This document shows, one piece after another, positions 1 to 56,405 of a stretch of DNA of 64,000 nucleotides (positions are counted from its first letter, which is position 1; each line of letters starts with the position of its first letter). This stretch comes from Candidatus Spongiihabitans sp. (GTDB lineage: Bacteria > Pseudomonadota > Gammaproteobacteria > Arenicellales > Poriferihabitantaceae). The stretch covers positions 3,497,283-3,561,282 of the forward strand of contig OZ250151.1 in assembly GCA_965237725.1 (NCBI GenBank), given 5' to 3'. The notes under the pieces were generated by a model. It was not told where the DNA came from. It was given only the letters and a program-made list of their open reading frames with translations, and did no database searches. The position numbers and the translations under genes were made by a program.

Positions 1-62
1 CAAGATGATCTGATGAAAAGATTAATATCATGAAAATATTTTTGTGGTGAATCGAATAATCA

Positions 63-929
63 ATGAAGTCCATGAAGCCCAAGGCATACAAACACATCCA
101 GGTCATTCCCCTTTCTGGAGCCTGCGGTGGTGAAATTCATGGGGTCGATATTGCAAAACCAATGTCAGATGCTGTTTATCAGGAAGTTCGTCGCGCATTG
201 CTTGAATCCCAGGTCATTTTTTTTCGTGATCAGAATCTCACAACCGACCAACTGAAGGCGTTCGCCGCACGATTTGGTGAGCTGGATATCCATACCATTT
301 TACAGGGTTTGGAAGGCCATCCAGAAATTCTCGAAGTGCTGACCGAGCCTGGAGACACTAACGTTTATTCCGAAGGCTGGCACGCTGATGTCACCTACCA
401 ACCCTGTCCTACCCTGGGCGCAATACTTTATGCTATTGAAGTTCCAAAAGTTGGTGGCGATACTTTATTTTCCAGTCAATACCTGGCCTATGAATCATTA
501 TCCAAAGGGTTGCAGCAAATGCTGTTGGGTATGACCGGGATCCACAGTTCTTTAAGAGTATATGGTGATCGACAGGCATCTATGGATCTCAAAGATGAGA
601 ATATGATTGTGACCAAAGAGCAAGCGCAAAGTGTGGTGTCCGAACATCCCGTAGTGCGAACCCATCCAGAAACCGGGCGTAAGTCGTTGTTTGTTAACGA
701 CCACTATACCCTGGGCTTCAAGGGAATGACCGAGCAGGAAAGTGCACCGCTGCTGCAGTTTTTGTTAAATCATGCCATCCAGCCAGAATTTACCTGTCGA
801 TTTCACTGGCAGAAAAATTCTATCGCATTTTGGGATAATCGCTGCCTGCTGCACAATCCCATTGGAGATTATCTGGGACAACGGCGTTATTTACACCGCG
901 TTGTAGTTGCTGGCGACCCGCCGTTTTGA
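63..929 (+). CDS. TauD/TfdA-family Fe(II)/2-oxoglutarate dioxygenase
   Basis: 288-aa ORF. Carries an HxD iron motif (WHADVTY), GGDTLFSS, and a C-terminal WDNRCLLH...YLHR block typical of taurine dioxygenase-like enzymes. Confidence 0.8.
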   Translation: MKSMKPKAYKHIQVIPLSGACGGEIHGVDIAKPMSDAVYQEVRRALLESQVIFFRDQNLTTDQLKAFAARFGELDIHTILQGLEGHPEILEVLTEPGDTNVYSEGWHADVTYQPCPTLGAILYAIEVPKVGGDTLFSSQYLAYESLSKGLQQMLLGMTGIHSSLRVYGDRQASMDLKDENMIVTKEQAQSVVSEHPVVRTHPETGRKSLFVNDHYTLGFKGMTEQESAPLLQFLLNHAIQPEFTCRFHWQKNSIAFWDNRCLLHNPIGDYLGQRRYLHRVVVAGDPPF

Positions 930-960
930 ATATCCGGTTTTAGATACAACAACGTTGCCC

Positions 961-1974
961 ATGAAATTACTGGTCACCGGCGGCGGCGGTTTTGTGATGT
1001 GTCATGTTGTACGGGAATTTTTGCTGGCCAATCCAGATGCCACGGCCTTAATTATGGATCAATCACCCCTCGATCCCAGCGCCCAGGGTTTTTTCGCCGA
1101 TCTGGCTGAGCGAATTGAGATTATGGTTGCTGATGCAGGTGATGCCGCGAGCTGGGGCGCTATCTCCGGGCAAACCCAGATCACCCATATGGTCCATGGT
1201 GCTGCAGTAACCAGTATTGTTTCCAGGCTGGATAGTATGCCTGAAATAGAAGACCGGCTGGGTCACATTGAAAATGCCATGGCGACCAATATTATGAGCT
1301 CGGTATATGCAATGGGATTCGCCCTCCAACAACATTCCTTAGAGAAATTTATTAATGTCAGTTCGGGTTCGATATACGGCCTTGAGGCGCCCACGGGTCC
1401 TTTACCGGAAAATGGCTATGTGGGCCCCAGCGGATTTTATGCGGTATCCAAATACAGCGCTGAATTGTTGTTGGACAGCTATAAGGAACAGTTTGGATTG
1501 CCCGGGGCTAGTGTTCGGTTATCTGGGGTTTACGGACCCATGGATCGACAAACATCTGGGCGCGATGTGCGTTGTGTGCCATATCGAATCGCCCATGGGA
1601 TTATAGAAAATAAACCACTACGCATCAATTCCCTGAATGTTATTGGCGATTTTATTCATGTTGTTGATGTGGCGAAGGCGATCAATGGCCTGTCAATTGC
1701 CGACACATTAAATCACGATGTATACAACATCGCCTATGGAAAACCAGTCAGCATAGGTCAAATGATAAGAATAGCCCAGCGACGATTTCCAGAATTAACC
1801 TATGAGATCGTGGCAGCGGATGAAGCAGAAATTTTTCTCGACCCACTGCTCGACAAGGGTCGTTATGGACCCTACAGTATTAAGCGCATTTTCACTGATA
1901 CCGGCTGGCAACCACGTAGTATCGAAGACGGCATTAGTGATTACCTGGCGTGGTTAGAGGGGCACAACTTTTAA
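961..1974 (+). CDS. NAD-dependent epimerase/dehydratase (extended SDR)
   Basis: N-terminal Rossmann motif LLVTGGGGFV and a YxxxK motif (YAVSKYSAE). I chose the ATG at 961 (MKLLVTGGGG) rather than the track's TTG at 907, which overlaps the upstream gene. Confidence 0.75.
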   Translation: MKLLVTGGGGFVMCHVVREFLLANPDATALIMDQSPLDPSAQGFFADLAERIEIMVADAGDAASWGAISGQTQITHMVHGAAVTSIVSRLDSMPEIEDRLGHIENAMATNIMSSVYAMGFALQQHSLEKFINVSSGSIYGLEAPTGPLPENGYVGPSGFYAVSKYSAELLLDSYKEQFGLPGASVRLSGVYGPMDRQTSGRDVRCVPYRIAHGIIENKPLRINSLNVIGDFIHVVDVAKAINGLSIADTLNHDVYNIAYGKPVSIGQMIRIAQRRFPELTYEIVAADEAEIFLDPLLDKGRYGPYSIKRIFTDTGWQPRSIEDGISDYLAWLEGHNF

Positions 1975-2048
1975 ATTAAAAATTACAGAAGATGCAGTAA
2001 AAATTCTAATTCTGGAAAACCTGGTTTACAATTTCCACAGCTAAAAAC

Positions 2049-2546
2049 TTGAATTGGAAATCTGATTTCAAATTCAACTACGATTGGAAAAACATGTATA
2101 AAATTATTCAAACCCCAGACATTGAAATACGCGACACTAAAACAAAAAAAGGTAGAGGCGTATACGCTTGTCGGGATTTTAAAAATAATGAAATTATCGA
2201 AATCTCTCCTTACATCGTATTAGAGGATCACTTCAGTTTAATACCTGATTGCCTACAGGAAATTGTGTATAACGGCAGCGGATTTAAGAAACTATCTCGC
2301 AAGGCTGAAAAAGAGGGCAAGCAGGTGTTAGCTATAGTATTGGGCTATGGCAGTATGTACAACCACGGAAATCCTGCCAATGTCAGCGCAAAACCAAATC
2401 CTAAAACCAGAATTATGGAATACAAATCGTTGCGGAAAATTACTAAGGGAACTGAGCTTTTGATTAACTACGATGCACTGTGGACGGGGGTTAGTAAGGG
2501 AAATAAATGGATTGCCCAACGAAAATTAAAATATATTAAGCCCTAA
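2049..2546 (+). CDS. SET-domain protein (putative protein-lysine methyltransferase)
   Basis: RGVYACRDFKNNEIIEISPYIVL matches the SET N-region. YNHGNPANV matches the NHSxxPN motif. GTELLINYD matches the ELxxDY motif. The track start is TTG at 2049; the ATG at 2094 is an alternative. The gene is visibly more A/T-rich than its neighbours. Confidence 0.7.
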   Translation: MNWKSDFKFNYDWKNMYKIIQTPDIEIRDTKTKKGRGVYACRDFKNNEIIEISPYIVLEDHFSLIPDCLQEIVYNGSGFKKLSRKAEKEGKQVLAIVLGYGSMYNHGNPANVSAKPNPKTRIMEYKSLRKITKGTELLINYDALWTGVSKGNKWIAQRKLKYIKP

Positions 2547-2647
2547 AATCTGTTGCTCATTAGCGAAATTCCGAGTTAAAATTAATCGTGTCGAAGGAAT
2601 AAACCTATTATTTAACCTTACTTTCGCTGATTCGCGAGGATGAATTA

Positions 2648-2854
2648 ATGCCCAAAATCACTAAAAACCAAATTGCACGCCGCAAAGCGCTTAAAACAAT
2701 GGCAATCGGTGGAGCCGCAGCGACTACTGCCAAGGAGCTTCCCGAACGCTGGGGAAAACCCGTAATTGATGGCGTCCTGTTACCCGCCCATGCGAAAATG
2801 AGTGGAAAAGGAAAAGGAAAAGGGAAAGGAGAACAACCAGAAGAAGGAAGTTAG
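2648..2854 (+). CDS. small exported peptide with a Tat-like leader and a (GK)n core
   Basis: 68-aa ORF with a GAGGA Shine-Dalgarno about 8 nt upstream. Contains RRKALK plus a hydrophobic stretch, then LPERWGKPVIDGVLLPAHA, then the tail KMSGKGKGKGKGEQPEEGS. The leader block is paralogous to the N-terminus of the 38278..39027 protein. Confidence 0.6.
   Translation: MPKITKNQIARRKALKTMAIGGAAATTAKELPERWGKPVIDGVLLPAHAKMSGKGKGKGKGEQPEEGS
2804..2830 (+). repeat. hexanucleotide tandem repeat (GGAAAA-like) encoding GKGKGKGKG
   Basis: The DNA reads gga aaa gga aaa gga aaa ggg aaa gga in frame with the 2648..2854 ORF. Confidence 0.9.
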
Positions 2855-2951
2855 AGGAAAGAAATTTGACCCGACTATTGGGATCATCCCTAGTCGTGCA
2901 ATCGCCAGTCATCTACGATTAGTAATCGTTTGTTAGCGTTTCGAACAATGA

Positions 2952-3527
2952 TTAGTTTCTTTTTCTGTCGAGATGAATAACAATCATTTTCTCTCCCAAT
3001 ACCTGAACGTCTTTGCTGCCTTGATCAAATTGCAATAAATGATTCCCAGGTAACACCCTGGTCTCAGGATAATTGGGCTCAATTAGTCCAGCAGAATGCT
3101 CAAGGCAAAATACAAATCCTTGATCGCAGGACATTAATCTGACTGACTGCCTGTCAACATACGTGTCCACCTGGGCATGGAAGTGGCTGGAGCGGTTCAT
3201 TAGGTTGAAGTCAGTAATCGGACCTGAAATCAGTGCCCCATGGGTTTTACTTCCACCATCAAAATTTGCTATGTCGAGAATATTTTCTAATCGGCTAGTT
3301 TTGCCAGTATCGTGAACAAGCTCTATGCCATTACCCTGAATCAAAATCAAATTCCGTTCAAAGCCGGGGAAATCTGAGAATGGGCCATCCTCAATTACAC
3401 TGGCAATGCTGATTCGCCATTGAAAACTCTCCAGGGTTCCACCTGGGTTAATGGCAAGCTCGGTGGTTTCGCCTTTGCCATTTTTCCACAGTGATTTCCT
3501 GAACTGATCAGGAGGGATGATTTTCAC
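2952..3527 (-). CDS. HutD/Ves-family protein
   Basis: N-terminal WKNGKGETTELAI and FQWRISIA motifs are characteristic of the HutD family. Confidence 0.65.
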   Translation of the reverse strand: MKIIPPDQFRKSLWKNGKGETTELAINPGGTLESFQWRISIASVIEDGPFSDFPGFERNLILIQGNGIELVHDTGKTSRLENILDIANFDGGSKTHGALISGPITDFNLMNRSSHFHAQVDTYVDRQSVRLMSCDQGFVFCLEHSAGLIEPNYPETRVLPGNHLLQFDQGSKDVQVLGEKMIVIHLDRKRN

Positions 3528-3562
3528 GGCGGCAGTCTAAAAGCCTCGTATCAAGCCAGGTC

Positions 3563-4006
3563 TCAGGCGGCGGTTGTAACATAGGTTAAAACTTCAACTA
3601 CCTGTTCTGGAGTTGTTGCCCAGGCTAGGGCGGAAGCATCAACTTCTTTTAGCGGATGAATAATATCTTCATCGTGGAGGGTAATATAAGGCGTATTCAT
3701 AGCCGCACAAAAACCGGCGTCGAAGGCTGCATTCCATTGCTTGTATTTATCACCGAATCGAATCACTGCCAGGTCACATTGCTCAATCATTGTTCTGGTG
3801 CGAATACTGTTTACTTTGGAAGACTTGTGATCGCGCCAAAATCCAGATTCCTGTTCTCCCACACAGTCCCCCGCTGCATCGCTGGCCTCGTGATTGGTTA
3901 CCGGAGACAGGAATGAAACCGGTAGTTCCAGCGCTTCTGCCGCAGTTTTAATTTGTTCACGCCAGTCGGTGTGGATTTCTCCTGATAAATAGATTTCCCA
4001 ATGCAT
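3563..4006 (-). CDS. YtoQ-family protein (nucleoside 2-deoxyribosyltransferase-like fold)
   Basis: The N-terminus IYLSGEIHTDWREQI matches my recollection of the YtoQ family signature. Confidence 0.6.
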   Translation of the reverse strand: MHWEIYLSGEIHTDWREQIKTAAEALELPVSFLSPVTNHEASDAAGDCVGEQESGFWRDHKSSKVNSIRTRTMIEQCDLAVIRFGDKYKQWNAAFDAGFCAAMNTPYITLHDEDIIHPLKEVDASALAWATTPEQVVEVLTYVTTAA

Positions 4007-4055
4007 TATACTTCTCGGTTAGTTAATTGGCTGGATTGTACAGAAATTTTCTGAC

Positions 4056-4820
4056 TTAGCTTCGCGCAGAAATATATTCTGCGGTTATTTCCTTGAGGCG
4101 ATCCGGGCCGAAGCTTTCATCATGGCCACCATGGATCACAGCAGCGGGCAGGTTTTGCAATCTTTCCATGGTAATTAAATAGTCTTCAATATTGGAATCT
4201 TCCAGGGTGTCCAGCAATGGGCCATCGTAAATGGCGTCCCCTGAAAACAAGGTTGCAGTTTTTTCTTCCCACAATCCGATGCTGCCGGGCGAATGGCCGG
4301 GCAGGTGCATGACCTGGAAATGACGATCACCCAGATCCAGAATATCGCCATCGTCTACCAGCCAGGTTGGCGTAGCAGCAGGGGTGTGGAAACTATGCAA
4401 ATCGAATCCGGGTTTGGGCAAGGCGGTTATCATGCGCTCACTCTCAAGGGCATAGCCGGAGTCCCGCAAGCTATTGATTTCTTCAATAGGCCAGTCGTTT
4501 ACATCGAGACTGACTTGAGGTGGTGCGGATAGATTATCCGCTTCACATCGATGCACAACCCGGGTGTCAAATTCATACATACTGCCCATGTGATCCAGAT
4601 GAGTATGGGTGGCGACTACAATAACCGGTTTGCCCAGTAGATCTTCGATTTCATCTTTAAGACTGCTGATGCCCATTCCGGTATCAATTAACAGGTCATT
4701 CTCCCTGCCTTTTACATGCCAGATATTGCAGCGCAACAATTCGTCGACATGGGGTTCTCGAATCAAGGTGATATCGTCACTGATGGTATTTCGTTCGAAC
4801 CATCGATCTGCCAGTTTCAT
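4056..4820 (-). CDS. MBL-fold metallo-hydrolase
   Basis: Contains the THTHLDHMG (HxHxDH) metal motif and a downstream HLPGHSPG. Confidence 0.8.
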   Translation of the reverse strand: MKLADRWFERNTISDDITLIREPHVDELLRCNIWHVKGRENDLLIDTGMGISSLKDEIEDLLGKPVIVVATHTHLDHMGSMYEFDTRVVHRCEADNLSAPPQVSLDVNDWPIEEINSLRDSGYALESERMITALPKPGFDLHSFHTPAATPTWLVDDGDILDLGDRHFQVMHLPGHSPGSIGLWEEKTATLFSGDAIYDGPLLDTLEDSNIEDYLITMERLQNLPAAVIHGGHDESFGPDRLKEITAEYISARS

Positions 4821-4868
4821 AAGTTTGATTTCTCCTATTTGTTTTTTTGTGTAACTAGGAACTATAAC

Positions 4869-5651
4869 TTATCTGTTGGCAATATATTGTGTTGGGGTCA
4901 TGCCAAGGTTCTGTCGAAACATGGCAATAAATGCAGAAGGGGATTCATAACCCATTTCCAGGGCCACTGTGGTTACCGCCACACCTTCAGCCAGCCGTTC
5001 CAGTGCGGATAATAAAATTCGACGCCGGCGCCATTCTCCGAAAGTCATGCCGGTTTCCTGCTTGAAAAGCCGCGCCAGGGTTCGGCCGCTGGCACCCACC
5101 CTTGAACCATGCTGTTCAATGGTGCGTCGGTCCGTGGGATCAGATAATAATGCATTGGTTACAGCACTCAATCGTGGGTTGGACGATAGAGGTAGATGTA
5201 GCGGGGCGGGTTTGGCGCAACGAATACGATCCAGAATTACCATCATAAGTCGGTTATCTGATCCATTCTCATCCCAGGCTCGGGGTAATTTGGCAGCTTC
5301 CAGAATTAGATTTCTAAGCAGCACATCTACGCTAAGTACGGTGCAGGAGTCCGGCATCCCCACCACTTCACTCGCTGCAATATACAGGCTTCTAAACTTG
5401 GCCGGGCCGATGGGACGGATATCGTGAGTGACACCCGGCGGTAACCATACCGCCATTGCAGGTGGCGCGGTAAAGTGGCCGTCGTCGGTGAGTACGGTGA
5501 GCACACCCTCAGCGGAATAAGTAAACTGTCCCCATTTATGTGCGTGGGGCTTAAAGGTTTCTCCGTCGGCCATGTCGAATGCTCGAACCTCAACGGGACG
5601 AATCAGCCGGGTTGGAATTTCGTTTATTCGTGTTTGTCTGTTTTCCGACAT
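4869..5651 (-). CDS. AraC-family transcriptional regulator (cupin N-domain)
   Basis: C-terminal HTH region SGRTLARLFKQETGMTFGEWRRRRIL...GYESPSAFIAMFRQNLGMTP, with a cupin-like N-terminal half. Confidence 0.85.
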   Translation of the reverse strand: MSENRQTRINEIPTRLIRPVEVRAFDMADGETFKPHAHKWGQFTYSAEGVLTVLTDDGHFTAPPAMAVWLPPGVTHDIRPIGPAKFRSLYIAASEVVGMPDSCTVLSVDVLLRNLILEAAKLPRAWDENGSDNRLMMVILDRIRCAKPAPLHLPLSSNPRLSAVTNALLSDPTDRRTIEQHGSRVGASGRTLARLFKQETGMTFGEWRRRRILLSALERLAEGVAVTTVALEMGYESPSAFIAMFRQNLGMTPTQYIANR

Positions 5652-36088: not shown

Positions 36089-37117
36089 TCAAACGATATC
36101 CGTGTTCAATAAACTGGCATCCCAGTTGTCTGGGTCGGTTAAATCAACGCCATTGATATTTTGAAAACTTAATCTTTGGGTATTGAAATTAGTTAGCAAA
36201 TAGGGGCGCTGGGCTGTTTCTATTTCGATGGATACTGCAAATTGGTTTTCCGTCAAAAGTTCAAGTAGGGATGCTGGGATTGCAACCGAGGATATTGCGA
36301 TTGGATTGTGTCTTATAGCTTTAACAATATATTCAACCACTGCGGCGTAAGTTTCATCTGTATCTGCGCTCAGTTGCAGAATACATATCGTATTGGAAGT
36401 TCGATTTCTTCCCAGAATAGCGTAACCACATAATTCCGAATTATCAGCATAAATTACCCGATACTCGCAGCCCGGATTCAATAGACGCCACTTAAAAAAT
36501 TCAGCAGTTTTATATGTGGTTGCAGGGTAAGGGTCGGATTGAACTTGACAATAATGAGCTAACTCATTTTCGCGTAATGGGCCGCTGGATAGTCTAATCC
36601 CCAAAGCTTTAGAAGCTGCACTGGGCAATTGATCCAGATCACTAAAAGGTAAGCCTTGTTTCATCGCACCTCCAGACCCAGATTTGTAATATATATCCCA
36701 CGGTCCAACGGTGAGCCAGTTACGCCGTTGGGATAATCCTGCGACAACAGGCCCAGGGCTGAGATTTATTCCAAAGTCGAATTTTTGCTCCAAAGCCAAT
36801 TCGAACAAGGCATCTGTCATTTTACTCACCAGGCCTCTGCCTTCGTAAGATTCCCGTACCACGGTGCCACCAAAACAGGCCAGCTTTTTTGGTTCTAAAG
36901 ACGCGCCAATTTTCCACTCCAGACCATAGGCATTACGAGTACCCACTACCTCTCCACTGTCTATGGCAACAACAACGAGGGGTTGATCAGAAACCGGATT
37001 TGCAATGTGCTTCCATTTAAATATCTGAGCAAGGCGCTGGGGCGTGGCGCTGGATAGGCGTTGGTATAAGATCAGAAGATCTTCCAGGTAACGAATATGA
37101 AATGGAACAATTTCCAT
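36089..37117 (-). CDS. GNAT-fold acyltransferase-like protein (two-lobed)
   Basis: VVRESYEGRGLVSKM fits the GNAT acyl-CoA-binding R/Q-x-x-G-x-G/A motif. It is the last gene of the 39027->36089 minus-strand cluster. Confidence 0.55.
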   Translation of the reverse strand: MEIVPFHIRYLEDLLILYQRLSSATPQRLAQIFKWKHIANPVSDQPLVVVAIDSGEVVGTRNAYGLEWKIGASLEPKKLACFGGTVVRESYEGRGLVSKMTDALFELALEQKFDFGINLSPGPVVAGLSQRRNWLTVGPWDIYYKSGSGGAMKQGLPFSDLDQLPSAASKALGIRLSSGPLRENELAHYCQVQSDPYPATTYKTAEFFKWRLLNPGCEYRVIYADNSELCGYAILGRNRTSNTICILQLSADTDETYAAVVEYIVKAIRHNPIAISSVAIPASLLELLTENQFAVSIEIETAQRPYLLTNFNTQRLSFQNINGVDLTDPDNWDASLLNTDIV

Positions 37118-37154: not shown

Positions 37155-38207
37155 CTATATTTTTAGTCGTTGGAAACCACCCCAATTTTCCAGTGGTTCA
37201 TAATTTTCTGATTCCAGTTGCAGGTCTTTTATAATCAGGCCAATCATGTCTTCGATAAGTTGGTATTTTAGGTTGCCCGAATATTCTGGCGTCATCGCCG
37301 GGCCACGATTACATTCGATAAGCCAGGGCTGCATGTTGCTATCGATCATCATATCCAGACCAATCAATTCGAAGCACATACGTGGGTCACCTAATAACTT
37401 ATTTGTTGTTGCCTGTAATGGTTCAGTGATGGAATTGAGGGTATCTATAAGGATTTTCTCAATTTGCGCCCATGTATTGGATCCGGCGGTTGTTTTTGAC
37501 GCATAGGATTGCCAATATTCAATGGTGCGACAATGAATCTCGGCGTCATAGTCCGGGTGGGTGGATTGGACCCCTGAATTGGTGTTGTACATGTAGTCAC
37601 TGACCAAAGGATCGTGTCCCGGTTCATAGGGAATGACACACAAGTCGGTACAACCTTCATTATATAAATAGGCGGTTAATGGATTGGTATTGACGATCAG
37701 AAGATACAGCCGAAGATTGTATTTACAGCCGTCAATCAAATGAACGTCATCGAGATATTCCTGTACCAGCCATTCCCCCGAGATCGGCATTTCTGACACA
37801 TCATTAACCCGTCTGATATATCTTCCCCAGGATCCACCTCTTGGTTTTATTAGCCATTGACCGCAGTCAAATATTTTCGAGATATCATCCTTTTGATCGG
37901 GCCAAAGATAGCTTTTTGGGAAATATCGCGGAAAATTGTCTTTATCGTGATTATTAGAATAGGCGTTGGAGAGATTTTGAAACAGCGACCACTTGTTGGT
38001 CAGTACAGATATGCCAGGAATATGGTTAATTCTCCGACCGGTAGGGATATGTTTGTAAAAATCCCGGGGTGGTTCTTTGTCGTTGTACCAGAGAATATCC
38101 CAATCGGGTGTTTCAACCTGAATTACGCCGGCGTTTTTGAAACCCTGGATGACAACCTGTGCGGATGGGTCGGATACAGGGCCGACAAATCCAAACTTTG
38201 TTGCCAT
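37155..38207 (-). CDS. tubulin-tyrosine-ligase (TTL/TTLL)-family ATP-grasp enzyme
   Basis: Four serial TTL-family blocks are present: RINHIPGISVLTNKWSLFQNL, WLIKPRGGSWGRYI, VQEYLDDVHLIDGCKYNLRLYLLIV and CFELIGLDMMIDSNMQPWLIECNRGPAM. Confidence 0.8.
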   Translation of the reverse strand: MATKFGFVGPVSDPSAQVVIQGFKNAGVIQVETPDWDILWYNDKEPPRDFYKHIPTGRRINHIPGISVLTNKWSLFQNLSNAYSNNHDKDNFPRYFPKSYLWPDQKDDISKIFDCGQWLIKPRGGSWGRYIRRVNDVSEMPISGEWLVQEYLDDVHLIDGCKYNLRLYLLIVNTNPLTAYLYNEGCTDLCVIPYEPGHDPLVSDYMYNTNSGVQSTHPDYDAEIHCRTIEYWQSYASKTTAGSNTWAQIEKILIDTLNSITEPLQATTNKLLGDPRMCFELIGLDMMIDSNMQPWLIECNRGPAMTPEYSGNLKYQLIEDMIGLIIKDLQLESENYEPLENWGGFQRLKI

Positions 38208-38277: not shown

Positions 38278-39027
38278 CTAGGGGGTCACTTTTACTATAA
38301 TTTTTGAGCCCATAGAATCGCCGCAGCCGGGAACACAGATAAATTGATCTGTCGGCACAAGGTTGGCGGTAAACTTTATACTTTTGCAAGATTTATTTCC
38401 GTTGTCCTCATTAAAAATATCGAATGCTCCCGTTACGGTCATTGCATCAGGGTCATACTCCATACTGAATAGGTCCACCCTCTCCTGATCATCTTCAATG
38501 TCAATACTCTCATCAATTCTCAAAATCGATGTGTCCACGAGTTTATTGTCTGGCAGGAGGGTAGAGCTTGTCTGGCCAGTGCATTCCTGAAACCCACCGG
38601 TAGTACTAAAACAGATATCGACGTCACCATTTTGGAGGATTCGAAATATGACAATAATGTTTATTTTATTATCCTGGCAGGCAGACTCACCCACATCATT
38701 GTGATAGCTGTCCAGTGCTGAGGCGGTTGGGATGACACTTTCCAGTGTAGCTGGTATAAGCCCTTCCAGCAGGGTATTGCCTTCCCACCATTTGGAATTA
38801 TCAGCCATATCGATAGCTTCAGTTGTAAATATGCCTAGAGGTGACATCATGGCATGAGCAGGCAGAAATACCGTATCAACAACAGGTTTTCGCCAGGTTT
38901 CTGGCAAAGCCTGGCTGCCCGCCACTAATCCGCCAGAAGCAACCAGCGACTTAAGCGCTGTACGTCGGTGGATATTTGGTGTGGTATTGGATTTCCCGAA
39001 TATTTTGTCTTTATCGATATTTCTCAT
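38278..39027 (-). CDS. exported hypothetical protein with the Tat-like leader shared with the 2648..2854 peptide
   Basis: HRRTALKSLVASGGLVAGSQALPETWRKPVVDTVFLPAHAMMS aligns ungapped with the small peptide's leader. The mature part is about 190 aa with 6 Cys and no family I recognise. Confidence 0.65.
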   Translation of the reverse strand: MRNIDKDKIFGKSNTTPNIHRRTALKSLVASGGLVAGSQALPETWRKPVVDTVFLPAHAMMSPLGIFTTEAIDMADNSKWWEGNTLLEGLIPATLESVIPTASALDSYHNDVGESACQDNKINIIVIFRILQNGDVDICFSTTGGFQECTGQTSSTLLPDNKLVDTSILRIDESIDIEDDQERVDLFSMEYDPDAMTVTGAFDIFNEDNGNKSCKSIKFTANLVPTDQFICVPGCGDSMGSKIIVKVTP

Positions 39028-39256
39028 AATTCTGCCTCAAATTCTGTTAACCCATTAGGTAGCGTTAAATTGTGCGGCAATTGGTTGATGCTGTCAAAAG
39101 ATTATTGGGAAATATTGGGTAAAAACCGATTAATACGGATGTTGAAATCCTATTTGCACAATTTTGATGTCCATATGCTGGTTAATCTTTTGCAAAAAAT
39201 AGTGTATCGTTGAAAAAATACAATTTATCTAATCGAAACGTAAAGAGAATCTCGAA

Positions 39257-39433
39257 ATGAAGCTTAAGAACGTGTTAAATATTGGAATTGCGACTGTCAT
39301 TGCCTTAATGTTTACAGGCTGCGCACCGGAGGTCGGTAGTGATAAATGGTGCGCCAACATGAAAAACAAATCCAAAACTGACTGGTCGGTAAACGAAGCC
39401 ACGGACTTTGCCAAGCACTGCCTTTTAAATTAG
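39257..39433 (+). CDS. small lipoprotein (DUF3012-like)
   Basis: 58-aa ORF below the track cutoff: MKLKNVLNIGIATVIALMFTGCAPEVGSDKWCANMKNKSKTDWSVNEATDFAKHCLLN. It has the lipobox LMFTGC, and the body matches my recollection of DUF3012. Confidence 0.6.
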   Translation: MKLKNVLNIGIATVIALMFTGCAPEVGSDKWCANMKNKSKTDWSVNEATDFAKHCLLN

Positions 39434-39499: not shown

Positions 39500-40372
39500 T
39501 TAATTAAGAACGCTGGTGAGTAGTCGTCTGTATTTCGAAGCCAGCTCGCCTTTACCGCCGAGTAATTCAAACACCTTGATCAGGGTAAGTCTTGCGATGT
39601 CGTCCTGGAACTGCCGATCCTGTTTAATAATTTCCAATAACTGATCCATGCCTTCGGCGTATTTTTGTTCAGCGATGTAGCGCTGTGCCAACTCCAATCT
39701 GGCCTGCAAATTTGATGAATCCTCATTGATGGCATTGAGTAATTCAGACTCTGCTGGCAGGTCGTTAACCACCTGATCAAATTCGATTTTGGCCAAATAG
39801 GCCTGAAATTCCGGCGTTGATTTTCCTTCATCGGAAATTGCTTCAGCCACCTTGGCGGCATCAGTCATATTATCTTCCGCGCACAGCCACCCCAGTAGAA
39901 CAAGCTTCGGTTGATCGTTATCCGGCTGGGAATGCATCATCTGCACCATCAAGGCTTTGGCGCCATCGGTATTACCATTTTCGTATTCCGCCTGGGCAAT
40001 TTCAACTTCACCAGGGCCTGGCGCACCAACGTGTTTGTCGATAATTTCCCGAATTGCGGATTCCGGTTGGGCGCCCATAAATTGATCCACTGGCTGCCCA
40101 TCTTTAAAAAAGAATACCGTTGGCAAACTGCGGATTCCAAATTGCCCTGCCAGTTCCTGTTCCTGCTCGGTATCTACCTTGACTAATTTGATTGCGCCCT
40201 GGTATTGAACCACCAGATTGTCAAGAATTGGTGCCAGGGATTTACAGGGTGCGCACCAGTCAGCCCAGAAATCAACAAGTACCAGGGCTTCATTGGATGC
40301 TTCGATAACGTCCGCAGCAAAGGTTTGCATGCCTGAATTGACATGGTTTTCAGTGGTTGTGTTCATATACAA
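39500..40372 (-). CDS. thioredoxin-domain/TPR co-chaperone (YbbN/CnoX-like)
   Basis: N-terminal thioredoxin fold with WADWCAPCK, followed by a TPR-like helical C-terminal half. Confidence 0.8.
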   Translation of the reverse strand: MYMNTTTENHVNSGMQTFAADVIEASNEALVLVDFWADWCAPCKSLAPILDNLVVQYQGAIKLVKVDTEQEQELAGQFGIRSLPTVFFFKDGQPVDQFMGAQPESAIREIIDKHVGAPGPGEVEIAQAEYENGNTDGAKALMVQMMHSQPDNDQPKLVLLGWLCAEDNMTDAAKVAEAISDEGKSTPEFQAYLAKIEFDQVVNDLPAESELLNAINEDSSNLQARLELAQRYIAEQKYAEGMDQLLEIIKQDRQFQDDIARLTLIKVFELLGGKGELASKYRRLLTSVLN

Positions 40373-56194: not shown

Positions 56195-56405
56195 GGTACA
56201 CTTCACTTTGGTATTACCTGCGGTGTTCGAGTTGTTCTCCGAATCCCTTAGAACCTAATATTTATACTCGGGTGCTGTTATGAATGACCGGCGTGTATGA
56301 CCCCAGCCTGGCTGGTGCGAATCCCAAAGTTATTCTTTGTACCCACTTGGACCTCCTTGGTTCAAGGTAAAGTGAGCATACGGCACTCGCGGGTAATGCT
56401 TTTTA
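56195..56405 (+). ncRNA. ssrS: 6S RNA (SsrS)
   Basis: A non-coding gap lies in the conserved zapA-ssrS-ygfA position. The 3' part, ccttggttcaagg...cggcactcgcgggtaatgc, resembles E. coli 6S (CCUUGAACCAAGGGUUCAAGG...GCCUGCGGCGGCAUC). The 5' gtattacctgcg can pair with the 3' cgcgggtaatgc. An internal hairpin CCAGCC/GGCTGG is present. A T-run follows the closing helix. The ends are approximate. Confidence 0.7.

Follow-up and report, generated by a model that had tools for sequence, protein, structure and literature searches.

The stretch of DNA analysed here (64,000 nucleotides of contig OZ250151.1 from a Candidatus Spongiihabitans sp., hereafter the window) encodes two unlinked proteins of 249 and 68 amino acids (aa) that share a block of 43 residues near their N-termini, and this block marks a large unnamed family of leader sequences. 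A previous sequence-only reading of the window had described the block as ungapped, with 22 of 43 positions identical and 16 identities among the last 22 residues, and a recount bears out all of these figures; BLASTP aligns the pair with 24/48 identities and 0 gaps (E=3e-13). Among all six-frame open reading frames (ORFs) of the window of at least 60 aa (40,044 residues), an ungapped scan for the last 22 residues (BLOSUM62 score of at least 35) matched only the query segment and its 68-aa partner (score 86). At the DNA level, the two blocks are 55% identical and use different codons at 14 of the 22 identical residues, which argues for selection at the peptide level and not for recent duplication or a decayed fragment. 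Both ORFs carry a Shine-Dalgarno-like GAGG 7 to 9 nt 5' of the ATG (GAGGA in case of the 68-aa ORF), and the promoter-like site upstream of the 249-aa gene (see the table) scores no better than shuffle expectation in a consensus scan. The sequences after the shared A-H-A had been called completely unrelated, and this is correct overall with exception of a Ser at position +3 that both proteins have in common and that, as S62, is the last residue of the conserved block in the 249-aa protein. The exact 68-aa protein is present in the public collection (P0003), the 249-aa protein has a homologue of 39% identity (P0002), and a word-indexed homologue search with a short leader alignment yielded one candidate. 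Neither window protein belongs to a Pfam or NCBIfam family, save for sub-threshold matches to models of twin-arginine translocation (Tat) signals.

The sequence-only reading had proposed to scan public proteomes with a profile of the block and to tabulate what follows it. A 43-position profile of three sequences, of which the 249-aa block scores 96.5 bits as a member, retrieved 3,555 clusters from 1.84 billion representative proteins with a limit of E<=1e-3, most of them from marine Gammaproteobacteria of Arenicellales type, and 733 with a limit of E<=1e-10. The best 150 of these 3,555 matches are 55 to 271 aa long and carry the block N-terminally in all cases, with a spacing from xRR to AHA of exactly 40 residues in 146 of them. 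Across these 146 aligned members, an R, W, P, P and H are invariant, including the W and P of a W-x-x-P motif (146/146). The family consensus from the best protein matches (SRRKLLKSIAAGSGAVVAGKSLPESWSKPVVDSVMLPAHAQTS) runs from S-R-R-x-L-L-K over a Gly/Ala-type hydrophobic (h-) region to W-x-[K/R]-P-V-V-D-x-V-x-L-P-A-H-A and a final Q-T-[S/T], and distant members have a shorter h-region with W-x-[K/R]-P...L-P-A-H-A retained. Following AHA, Q or E occupies position +1 in 84% of members, and S or T occupies position +3 in every sequence, whether derived from genomes (138/138) or from proteins (146/146); at +4, the conservation breaks down.

We also scanned one genome per GTDB species with a DNA pattern that forces the core residues and obtained at least 115 loci, of which a hidden Markov model (HMM) of the leader confirms 113 among the matches listed. 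These matches come mostly from Arenicellales and unclassified gammaproteobacterial metagenome-assembled genomes (MAGs). Desulfobulbales are represented too, among them a cultured isolate (Desulfofustis glycolicus DSM 9705; locus L106), as are other phyla by a few MAGs. Many genomes carry numerous leader genes, partly in tandem arrays of three (L007), four (L068) or six (L127) copies. In the last of these (L127, positions 1-4940), six tandem genes combine near-identical leaders with six different passengers of 149 to 287 aa. The leader DNA pattern gave 0 matches in viral contigs, which makes a phage origin unlikely. The NCBI record of one member reads hypothetical protein, and a search of the open-access literature and bioRxiv found no relevant paper for LPAHA-type strings and nothing for longer strings.

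Table. Features of the two precursor genes and their neighbourhoods in the window.
Feature	Coordinates	Strand	Basis or remark
Gene of 249-aa precursor protein	38278..39027	-	ORF and translation; leader (residues 1-62), linker, second hhDxLhPxAxA motif, predicted ~130-aa Cys-containing beta domain
Leader block of 249-aa protein, residues 20-62, HRRTALKSLVASGGLVAGSQALPETWRKPVVDTVFLPAHAMMS	38842..38970	-
Twin-arginine motif R21-R22-T-A-L-K26 of 249-aa protein	38950..38967	-	Near-invariant R-R-x-x-L-K in the family
W45-R-K-P48 of 249-aa protein, candidate docking motif for a RiPP recognition element	38884..38895	-	Motif match (PMC12710340)
A57-H58-A59 of 249-aa protein, signal-peptidase-type A-x-A site	38851..38859	-	Near-invariant L-P-A-H-A
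Second partial copy of distal motif, L86-L-E-G-L-I-P-A-T-L-E-S-V-I-P-T-A102-S-A104	38716..38772	-
Promoter-like TTGACA-17-CACAAT, ~42 nt upstream of 249-aa ATG	39069..39097	-	Consensus scan
TTL-family ATP-grasp ligase	37155..38207	-	71 bp downstream of 249-aa gene; Pfam TTL 148.7 bits
342-aa GNAT-family acetyltransferase	36089..37117	-	Pfam Acetyltransf_1 28.5 bits; third gene of apparent operon
SET-domain protein, putative lysine methyltransferase	2049..2546	+	101 nt upstream of 68-aa gene; Pfam SET 36.1 bits
Gene of 68-aa precursor peptide	2648..2854	+	Leader and 19-residue Lys/Gly-rich tail, KMSGKGKGKGKGEQPEEGS
Leader block of 68-aa peptide, residues 10-52, ARRKALKTMAIGGAAATTAKELPERWGKPVIDGVLLPAHAKMS	2675..2803	+
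RR motif of 68-aa peptide	2678-2695	+
W-G-K-P of 68-aa peptide	2750-2761	+
A-H-A of 68-aa peptide	2786-2794	+

The proximal half of the leader resembles a Tat signal, as the sequence-only reading had suspected from its RR-x-A-L-K and the hydrophobic residues that follow. Tat signals are defined by S/T-R-R-x-F-L-K at the boundary of the n- and h-regions (PMC1182353). The family consensus S-R-R-K-L-L-K fits this definition, the window copies read H-R-R-T-A-L-K (249-aa protein) and A-R-R-K-A-L-K (68-aa peptide), and R-R is present in 144 to 146 of the 146 family members. Behind this motif lie 12 to 16 uncharged Gly/Ala/Val-rich residues (SLVASGGLVAGSQALP; TMAIGGAAATTA), again as expected of a Tat h-region. 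A Tat c-region is short and ends in A-x-A directly behind the h-region; here A-H-A is invariant and lies 18 to 20 residues past the h-region, with the conserved LPE-W-x-K-P-V-V-D-x-V block in between. Weak PDB matches of the leader profile include the RR-motif N-terminal stretches of two other proteins. Tat signals of these organisms do not generally contain the block: at the same MAG loci, Gluconate_2-dh3 subunits and a binding protein of DctP type carry ordinary short RR signals without any match to the leader HMM. A lipoprotein signal was rejected as there is no lipobox Cys. As a separate observation, leader genes of the second-motif subfamily described below repeatedly adjoin, in Arenicellales genomes, a GMC oxidoreductase and a small Gluconate_2-dh3 subunit whose Tat signal is ordinary (L009, L067, L068 and L100, also L037 and L099), which may reflect either inherited synteny or a functional link.

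What follows the leader is hypervariable. The 249 passengers that we compared form 124 clusters by BLAST, including 99 singletons, with a median length of 132 aa and roughly a tenth of peptide size, and a Pfam scan of 150 members found essentially no passenger domains. Their composition is rich in G/T/S/P, poor in K/R and includes 2.6% Cys, which fits an extracytoplasmic location. Core length differs between the two window proteins, from the 19-residue tail of the 68-aa peptide to a predicted folded domain of ~130 aa in the 249-aa protein. The latter belongs to the largest passenger group, which is characterized by a second hhDxLhPxAxA motif 25 to 55 residues past the leader and a Cys-containing domain behind it. 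In a 47-sequence alignment of this subfamily, A104 of the second motif is invariant and A102 is at least 90% conserved, and the leader HMM gives weak second matches at this position in homologues. An AlphaFold2 model of the 249-aa protein predicts beta strands across residues 124-222 (block-mean predicted local distance difference test score, pLDDT, of 62-91) and a detached leader of low confidence (pLDDT ~50), and we therefore rejected the idea that the leader packs against the passenger domain. Foldseek found no match of this model in the PDB at E<=0.001. We also rejected a polymorphic toxin with an immunity gene, with no recurrent small downstream gene seen. Besides, five loci (L008, L065, L069, L076 and L091) encode giant repeat-rich surface-type proteins of 1,088 to 1,694 aa that repeat an NSFDQ..D.DGDGF-type motif close to the C-terminus and end in a hydrophobic tail, together with a six-Cys leader protein of 109 to 121 aa (…CVTDTTVGGPL…CQAACEAEA…CGCDLDLP).

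Both window genes neighbour putative protein-modifying enzymes. The 249-aa gene is the first of an apparent operon in which the TTL and GNAT genes follow; the GNAT protein has a second GNAT-like region below threshold, and matches to Acetyltransf_9 and Acetyltransf_18 remain below the cut-offs. TTL homologues are few (11 matches, 10 besides the window's own) and were sampled independently of the leader, and at five of the six distinct loci that we inspected, the gene next after TTL encodes a protein of 249 to 256 aa with leader and second motif. Altogether, a TTL gene and a leader protein are paired at eight loci (L001, L011, L118/119, L120, L121, L122 and L124). At two of them (L121, 205-3229; L122, 71-3104), paralogous TTL genes flank a leader protein of ~250 aa on both sides, which suggests two ligation steps or two specificities. 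A TTL protein as partner of the leader in general was rejected with one occurrence among the 115 pattern-matched loci listed, and we therefore see the ligase as partner of the 249-aa passenger subfamily. In L012, a GNAT homologue lies beside a leader gene in two cases. With 28% identity, the TTL homologue of L123 is the most distant one; it does not adjoin a leader protein and instead comes after a 38-aa Lys/Ser-rich ORF (4875-4991; MKTKKKSVAQGLIEQLKKRLSFKIKSKVRAGSESSRGG), which might be a different small substrate.

The SET protein and a Lys-rich leader peptide are likewise paired at two loci, the window and the metagenome contig L117, with SET proteins of 56% identity. The syntenic orthologue of the 68-aa peptide (P0033) has kept the leader, a Lys-rich tail (KMTKKMAVKKTT) and the SET neighbour. 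Metagenome scans with the TTL and SET alignments produced no confirmed locus. TTL and SET represent tailoring-type enzymes in conserved pairings with a precursor, and judged by the company they keep, the SET protein would methylate lysines of the 68-aa tail and the TTL protein would ligate amino acids onto its 249-aa partner.

Elsewhere in the window, we noted a full-length 6S / SsrS RNA gene at 56212-56399 (+) (Rfam RF00013, 65.9 bits) and no tRNA genes in all 64 kb. A 58-aa ORF with a lipoprotein-type signal (…ALMFTGC…) lies at 39257-39433 (+) between the 249-aa gene and a thioredoxin-TPR gene at 39500-40372 (-). Each of seven window proteins that were looked up is the sole member of its 90%-identity cluster, suggesting that the source genome has no close relative in the collection, and the best tblastx matches to the fetched loci outside the TTL and SET loci show 60-68% amino-acid identity to gammaproteobacterial MAGs.

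Across the family, no neighbour is universal: among the matches listed, the best cluster of non-leader ORFs occurs at 9 of 113 loci, and we found no candidate such as a protease or Tat paralogue that would accompany the leader throughout. This best cluster comprises proteins of ~700 aa in which an N-terminal PqqD domain, a recognition element (RRE) for peptides that are made by ribosomes and modified after translation (RiPPs), is followed by GT2 and GT25 glycosyltransferase domains, and at six loci such a protein is encoded immediately downstream of the leader gene on the same strand (L040, L041, L055, L072, L097 and L106). An HMM made from their RREs detected RRE ORFs at 11 of the 112 genome loci listed, with 12 of 14 such ORFs no more than 200 bp away from the leader gene. 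A PqqD-type RRE protein is the immediate neighbour at 10 of these 112 loci and, in addition, at L125; the 55-aa family member P0026 is preceded by a stand-alone PqqD protein. Scores of PF05402 exceed the gathering threshold beside leader genes at L031, L035, L040, L041 (two copies), L042, L057, L072, L089, L106 and L125, with sub-threshold copies at L055 and L097. Fusion of the RRE to glycosyl- or pyruvyl-transferases is the usual case, and the partners vary between GT2 and GT25 together, PS_pyruv_trans (L031 and L057) and GT2 (L072); they come from different taxa and accompany different passengers. Several RREs stand alone or are of unknown type. At L126, a cluster of PqqD, NTP_transf_5 and GT2-GT25 genes starts ~5.4 kb from the leader gene. 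The richest cluster (L072, 380-7079) combines the leader protein with three others, namely a PhyH-cupin-sulfotransferase (870 aa), a GT2-PqqD protein (409 aa) and an RRE-GT2-GT25 protein (678-758 aa), which implies several kinds of tailoring on one substrate. Overall, an RRE is encoded within 2.5 kb of ~10% of leader genes, with 4/39 among the genes that have at least 2.5 kb of sequence on both sides.

A survey published in 2025 reported that the RRE group of PqqD, FusE, McjB and StsC binds W/Y/L-x-x-P/L/I and described RRE-GT2 fusions as not previously known (PMC12710340). At the level of the motif, this matches the invariant W-x-[K/R]-P of the leader family, 12 to 15 residues before the A-x-A site. 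PqqA peptides have W-x-x-P at their start, and behind it hydrophobic residues and an acidic one. The sequence-only reading had taken the distal part of the block, longer and more conserved than a signal peptidase would need, for a recognition sequence of a dedicated partner. This view is indirectly supported by its fixed length and its invariant W, P and L-P-A-H-A over thousands of unrelated passengers, by its absence from ordinary Tat substrates, the adjacent RRE proteins and the W-x-x-P match. Ubiquity on ordinary Tat substrates with no conserved neighbourhood, the outcome that would have spoken against a dedicated partner, is not what we found: the block is widespread yet missing from such substrates, and its neighbourhood recurs.

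In its combination of features, the leader recalls several known systems without coinciding with any of them. Like the leaders of RRE-dependent RiPPs such as lasso peptides (YxxP) and the PqqA-PqqD pair, it has a short aromatic-x-x-Pro motif about 12 to 17 residues upstream of the cleavage site (PMC12710340), and PF05402 domains are encoded beside the precursor and often fused to a tailoring enzyme. Unlike these, it adds a twin-arginine motif and an A-x-A site, most passengers are predicted folded domains of 100 to 200 aa, and the fused enzymes are glycosyl- or pyruvyl-transferases and not cyclases or radical-SAM enzymes; RRE binding here is suggested by the motif. The Nif11, NHLP and prochlorosin families likewise combine a highly conserved leader with hypervariable cores and with numerous precursor genes per genome, both unlinked and in tandem, most of which lie far from any modifying enzyme. 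Those leaders end in a double-glycine site that is cut by the peptidase of a dedicated ABC transporter and, to our knowledge, carry no general export signal. HMMs of Nif11 and NHLP leaders gave no match, and NCBIfam at E<=10 returned one Tat-signal and one irrelevant match.

Bufferins and oxazolins are RiPPs whose precursors have Sec signal peptides (PMC11626156, PMC12452194), and they share with the present family the replacement of a classical leader by a general-secretion signal, small folded periplasmic products and a partner with an RRE-like domain. The signal of bufferins is however a Sec signal that modification can do without and that lacks a conserved motif for recognition (PMC12710340), and their MNIO (DUF692) and DUF2063 enzymes differ from the TTL, GNAT and SET neighbours in the window, with none seen here. 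Neither the two window proteins nor 150 members had a Pfam or NCBIfam match to the bufferin families (DUF2282, BUF_6/12Cys). A cytoplasmic partner that binds within a Tat signal (PMC3712460) and couples cargo maturation to export is further known from TorA-TorD and DmsA-DmsD (PMC3712460, PMC3316669). These chaperones come from other families of proteins, serve specifically redox enzymes that contain cofactors and contact a region that overlaps the h-region, unlike the separate W-x-x-P extension seen here. Finally, a special extended signal peptide that defines a protein family is known from the serine-rich glycoproteins of accessory Sec systems, which are glycosylated in the cytoplasm before export, and from the substrates of SipW, which is their cognate peptidase. 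Those systems are Gram-positive, work with different translocases and with motifs that are unrelated, and have dedicated genes for export in the same operon.

Taking these lines together, we favour with moderate confidence, as the most economical model, a composite leader in which a Tat motif is combined with a docking motif for RREs and a site of signal-peptidase type. Sec-signal RiPPs (bufferins; PMC11626156) and chaperones that bind within Tat signals (PMC3712460) set precedents for it. What comparative genomics shows is the family with its anatomy, distribution and gene neighbourhoods; dependence on Tat, binding of an RRE, the position of cleavage and all chemical modifications are predictions from sequence in this model, in which small secreted leader proteins are probably modified inside the cell before their export. 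The S-R-R-x-L-L-K motif and the short Gly/Ala-rich hydrophobic stretch would target the precursor to the Tat translocase, W-x-[K/R]-P-[V/I]-[V/I]-[D/E] would be the docking site of PqqD-type RREs that are stand-alone or fused to tailoring enzymes, and L-P-A-H-A would serve as a signal-peptidase-type cleavage site ahead of the conserved Q-T-[S/T], whose hydroxyl residue at +3 may itself be a modification site. The precursor would be made in the cytoplasm, where its passenger would be modified by enzymes that are recruited via an RRE or encoded next door; in the window, these would be the TTL ATP-grasp ligase and the GNAT acetyltransferase for the 249-aa protein and the SET methyltransferase for the 68-aa peptide. 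Tat, which accepts folded and bulky cargo, would then export the modified passenger, and the leader would be removed after AHA. An RRE sitting on the c-region could moreover delay engagement of Tat and so impose a checkpoint that lets modification precede export. As a more tentative extension, which we consider possible without leaning toward it, the leaders might define a previously unrecognised class of a thousand members that follows this logic of RRE-guided cytoplasmic tailoring and subsequent Tat export, with the docking motif in the Tat c-region as checkpoint and glycosyl-, pyruvyl- and sulfo-transferases, ATP-grasp ligases and methyltransferases as its enzymes. Leader recognition of RiPP type would then be coupled to export by Tat for the first time in a natural system.

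Several observations weigh against the composite leader. About 90% of leader genes have no RRE in their sampled flanks, and the six-gene array of L127 has none in 9.5 kb. In the 64-kb window, our own HMM found no PqqD-like ORF at E<=1, neither precursor gene has an RRE beside it, and the TTL, GNAT and SET proteins contain none by sequence. The curated Tat models are equally reserved: the 68-aa peptide stays below the cut-offs of TIGR01409 (16.0 vs 16.7 bits) and PF10518 (11.3 vs 22.7 bits), the 249-aa protein matches neither, and PF10518 at E<=0.01 finds only 2 of the best 150 family members. Most passengers are protein-sized and predicted to fold, unlike classical RiPP cores, and Cys-rich passengers normally suggest periplasmic folding as for Sec substrates. 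The locus statistics, too, describe a pattern-biased sample and not a census, and the RRE adjacency is given as raw counts.

The main rival to the composite leader is a plain, lineage-specific and unusually long Tat (or Sec) signal peptide without any dedicated partner, whose distal block would be kept by constraints of translocase and signal peptidase such as avoidance of Sec through K/R, spacing and hairpin insertion, and whose family would have grown by duplication and leader shuffling with RRE neighbours in a minority of cases. We consider this explanation unlikely, if a serious one. In its favour, the RR motif, h-region and A-x-A site are all in place, the total length alone is not aberrant for Tat signals that average 37 residues (PMC1182353), RREs are scarce nearby (none of them in the window), and there is no universal neighbour beyond the 9/113 listed loci. 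Yet ordinary Tat substrates of the same genomes do without the block, and the invariant W, P, D/E and S/T(+3) and the fixed 40-residue spacing exceed the usual conservation of a signal-peptidase c-region and hold in several phyla and for unrelated passengers by the thousand. In the window, both copies preserve the peptide despite differing codons, and RRE ORFs abut leader genes far tighter than chance allows, judged by raw counts. Improbable to a greater degree, in our view, is that the distal hhDxhhxP-A-x-A mainly serves a dedicated protease of leaders or pro-peptides as the site that it recognizes and cuts, in analogy to a cognate signal peptidase; this protease in the 249-aa subfamily would cut both after the leader and after the second motif and thereby release a pro-linker. 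The second partial copy with its invariant A-x-A in the largest passenger subfamily, 25 to 55 residues downstream and present in the window protein, speaks for such an enzyme, and the Q/E at +1 would permit formation of an N-terminal pyroglutamate after cleavage; however, no protease gene recurs beside leader genes at the listed loci, and both the invariant W-x-x-P and the RRE neighbours would be left unexplained. The idea of a dedicated protease is compatible with the composite leader and not exclusive of it. The sequence-only reading had itself raised the option that the 68-aa ORF is no real gene and that its similarity stems from a decayed duplication fragment of the larger gene. The ORF is indeed short, and no sigma-70-like promoter was found in 2400-3000, but we rejected this option on the codon evidence and give it hardly any credence: beyond the divergent codons and 55% DNA identity of the blocks, the ORF has a good GAGGA ribosome-binding site, P0033 keeps leader, Lys-rich tail and SET neighbour in another contig, and dozens of other peptide-sized family members exist.

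In open-access papers and bioRxiv, we found no report of a natural Tat-signal RiPP-type leader, with mentions being engineered or incidental. If the composite leader is correct, the logic of RiPPs would reach beyond peptides to folded proteins, and the use of Tat would be explained by the incompatibility of Sec with bulky modifications made in the cytoplasm. The recently noticed RRE-glycosyltransferase fusions would obtain a substrate family that is defined, and the leader could act as a portable tag for glycosylation and export. The window genes would offer testable substrates for bacterial TTL and SET proteins, which are homologous to protein-modifying enzymes of eukaryotes and have few known targets in bacteria. 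Beyond the window, the tag RR...W-x-K-P-V-V-D-x-V-x-L-P-A-H-A-Q-T-S would flag thousands of unannotated secreted proteins of marine-sediment and symbiont Gammaproteobacteria as substrates of leader-guided modification.

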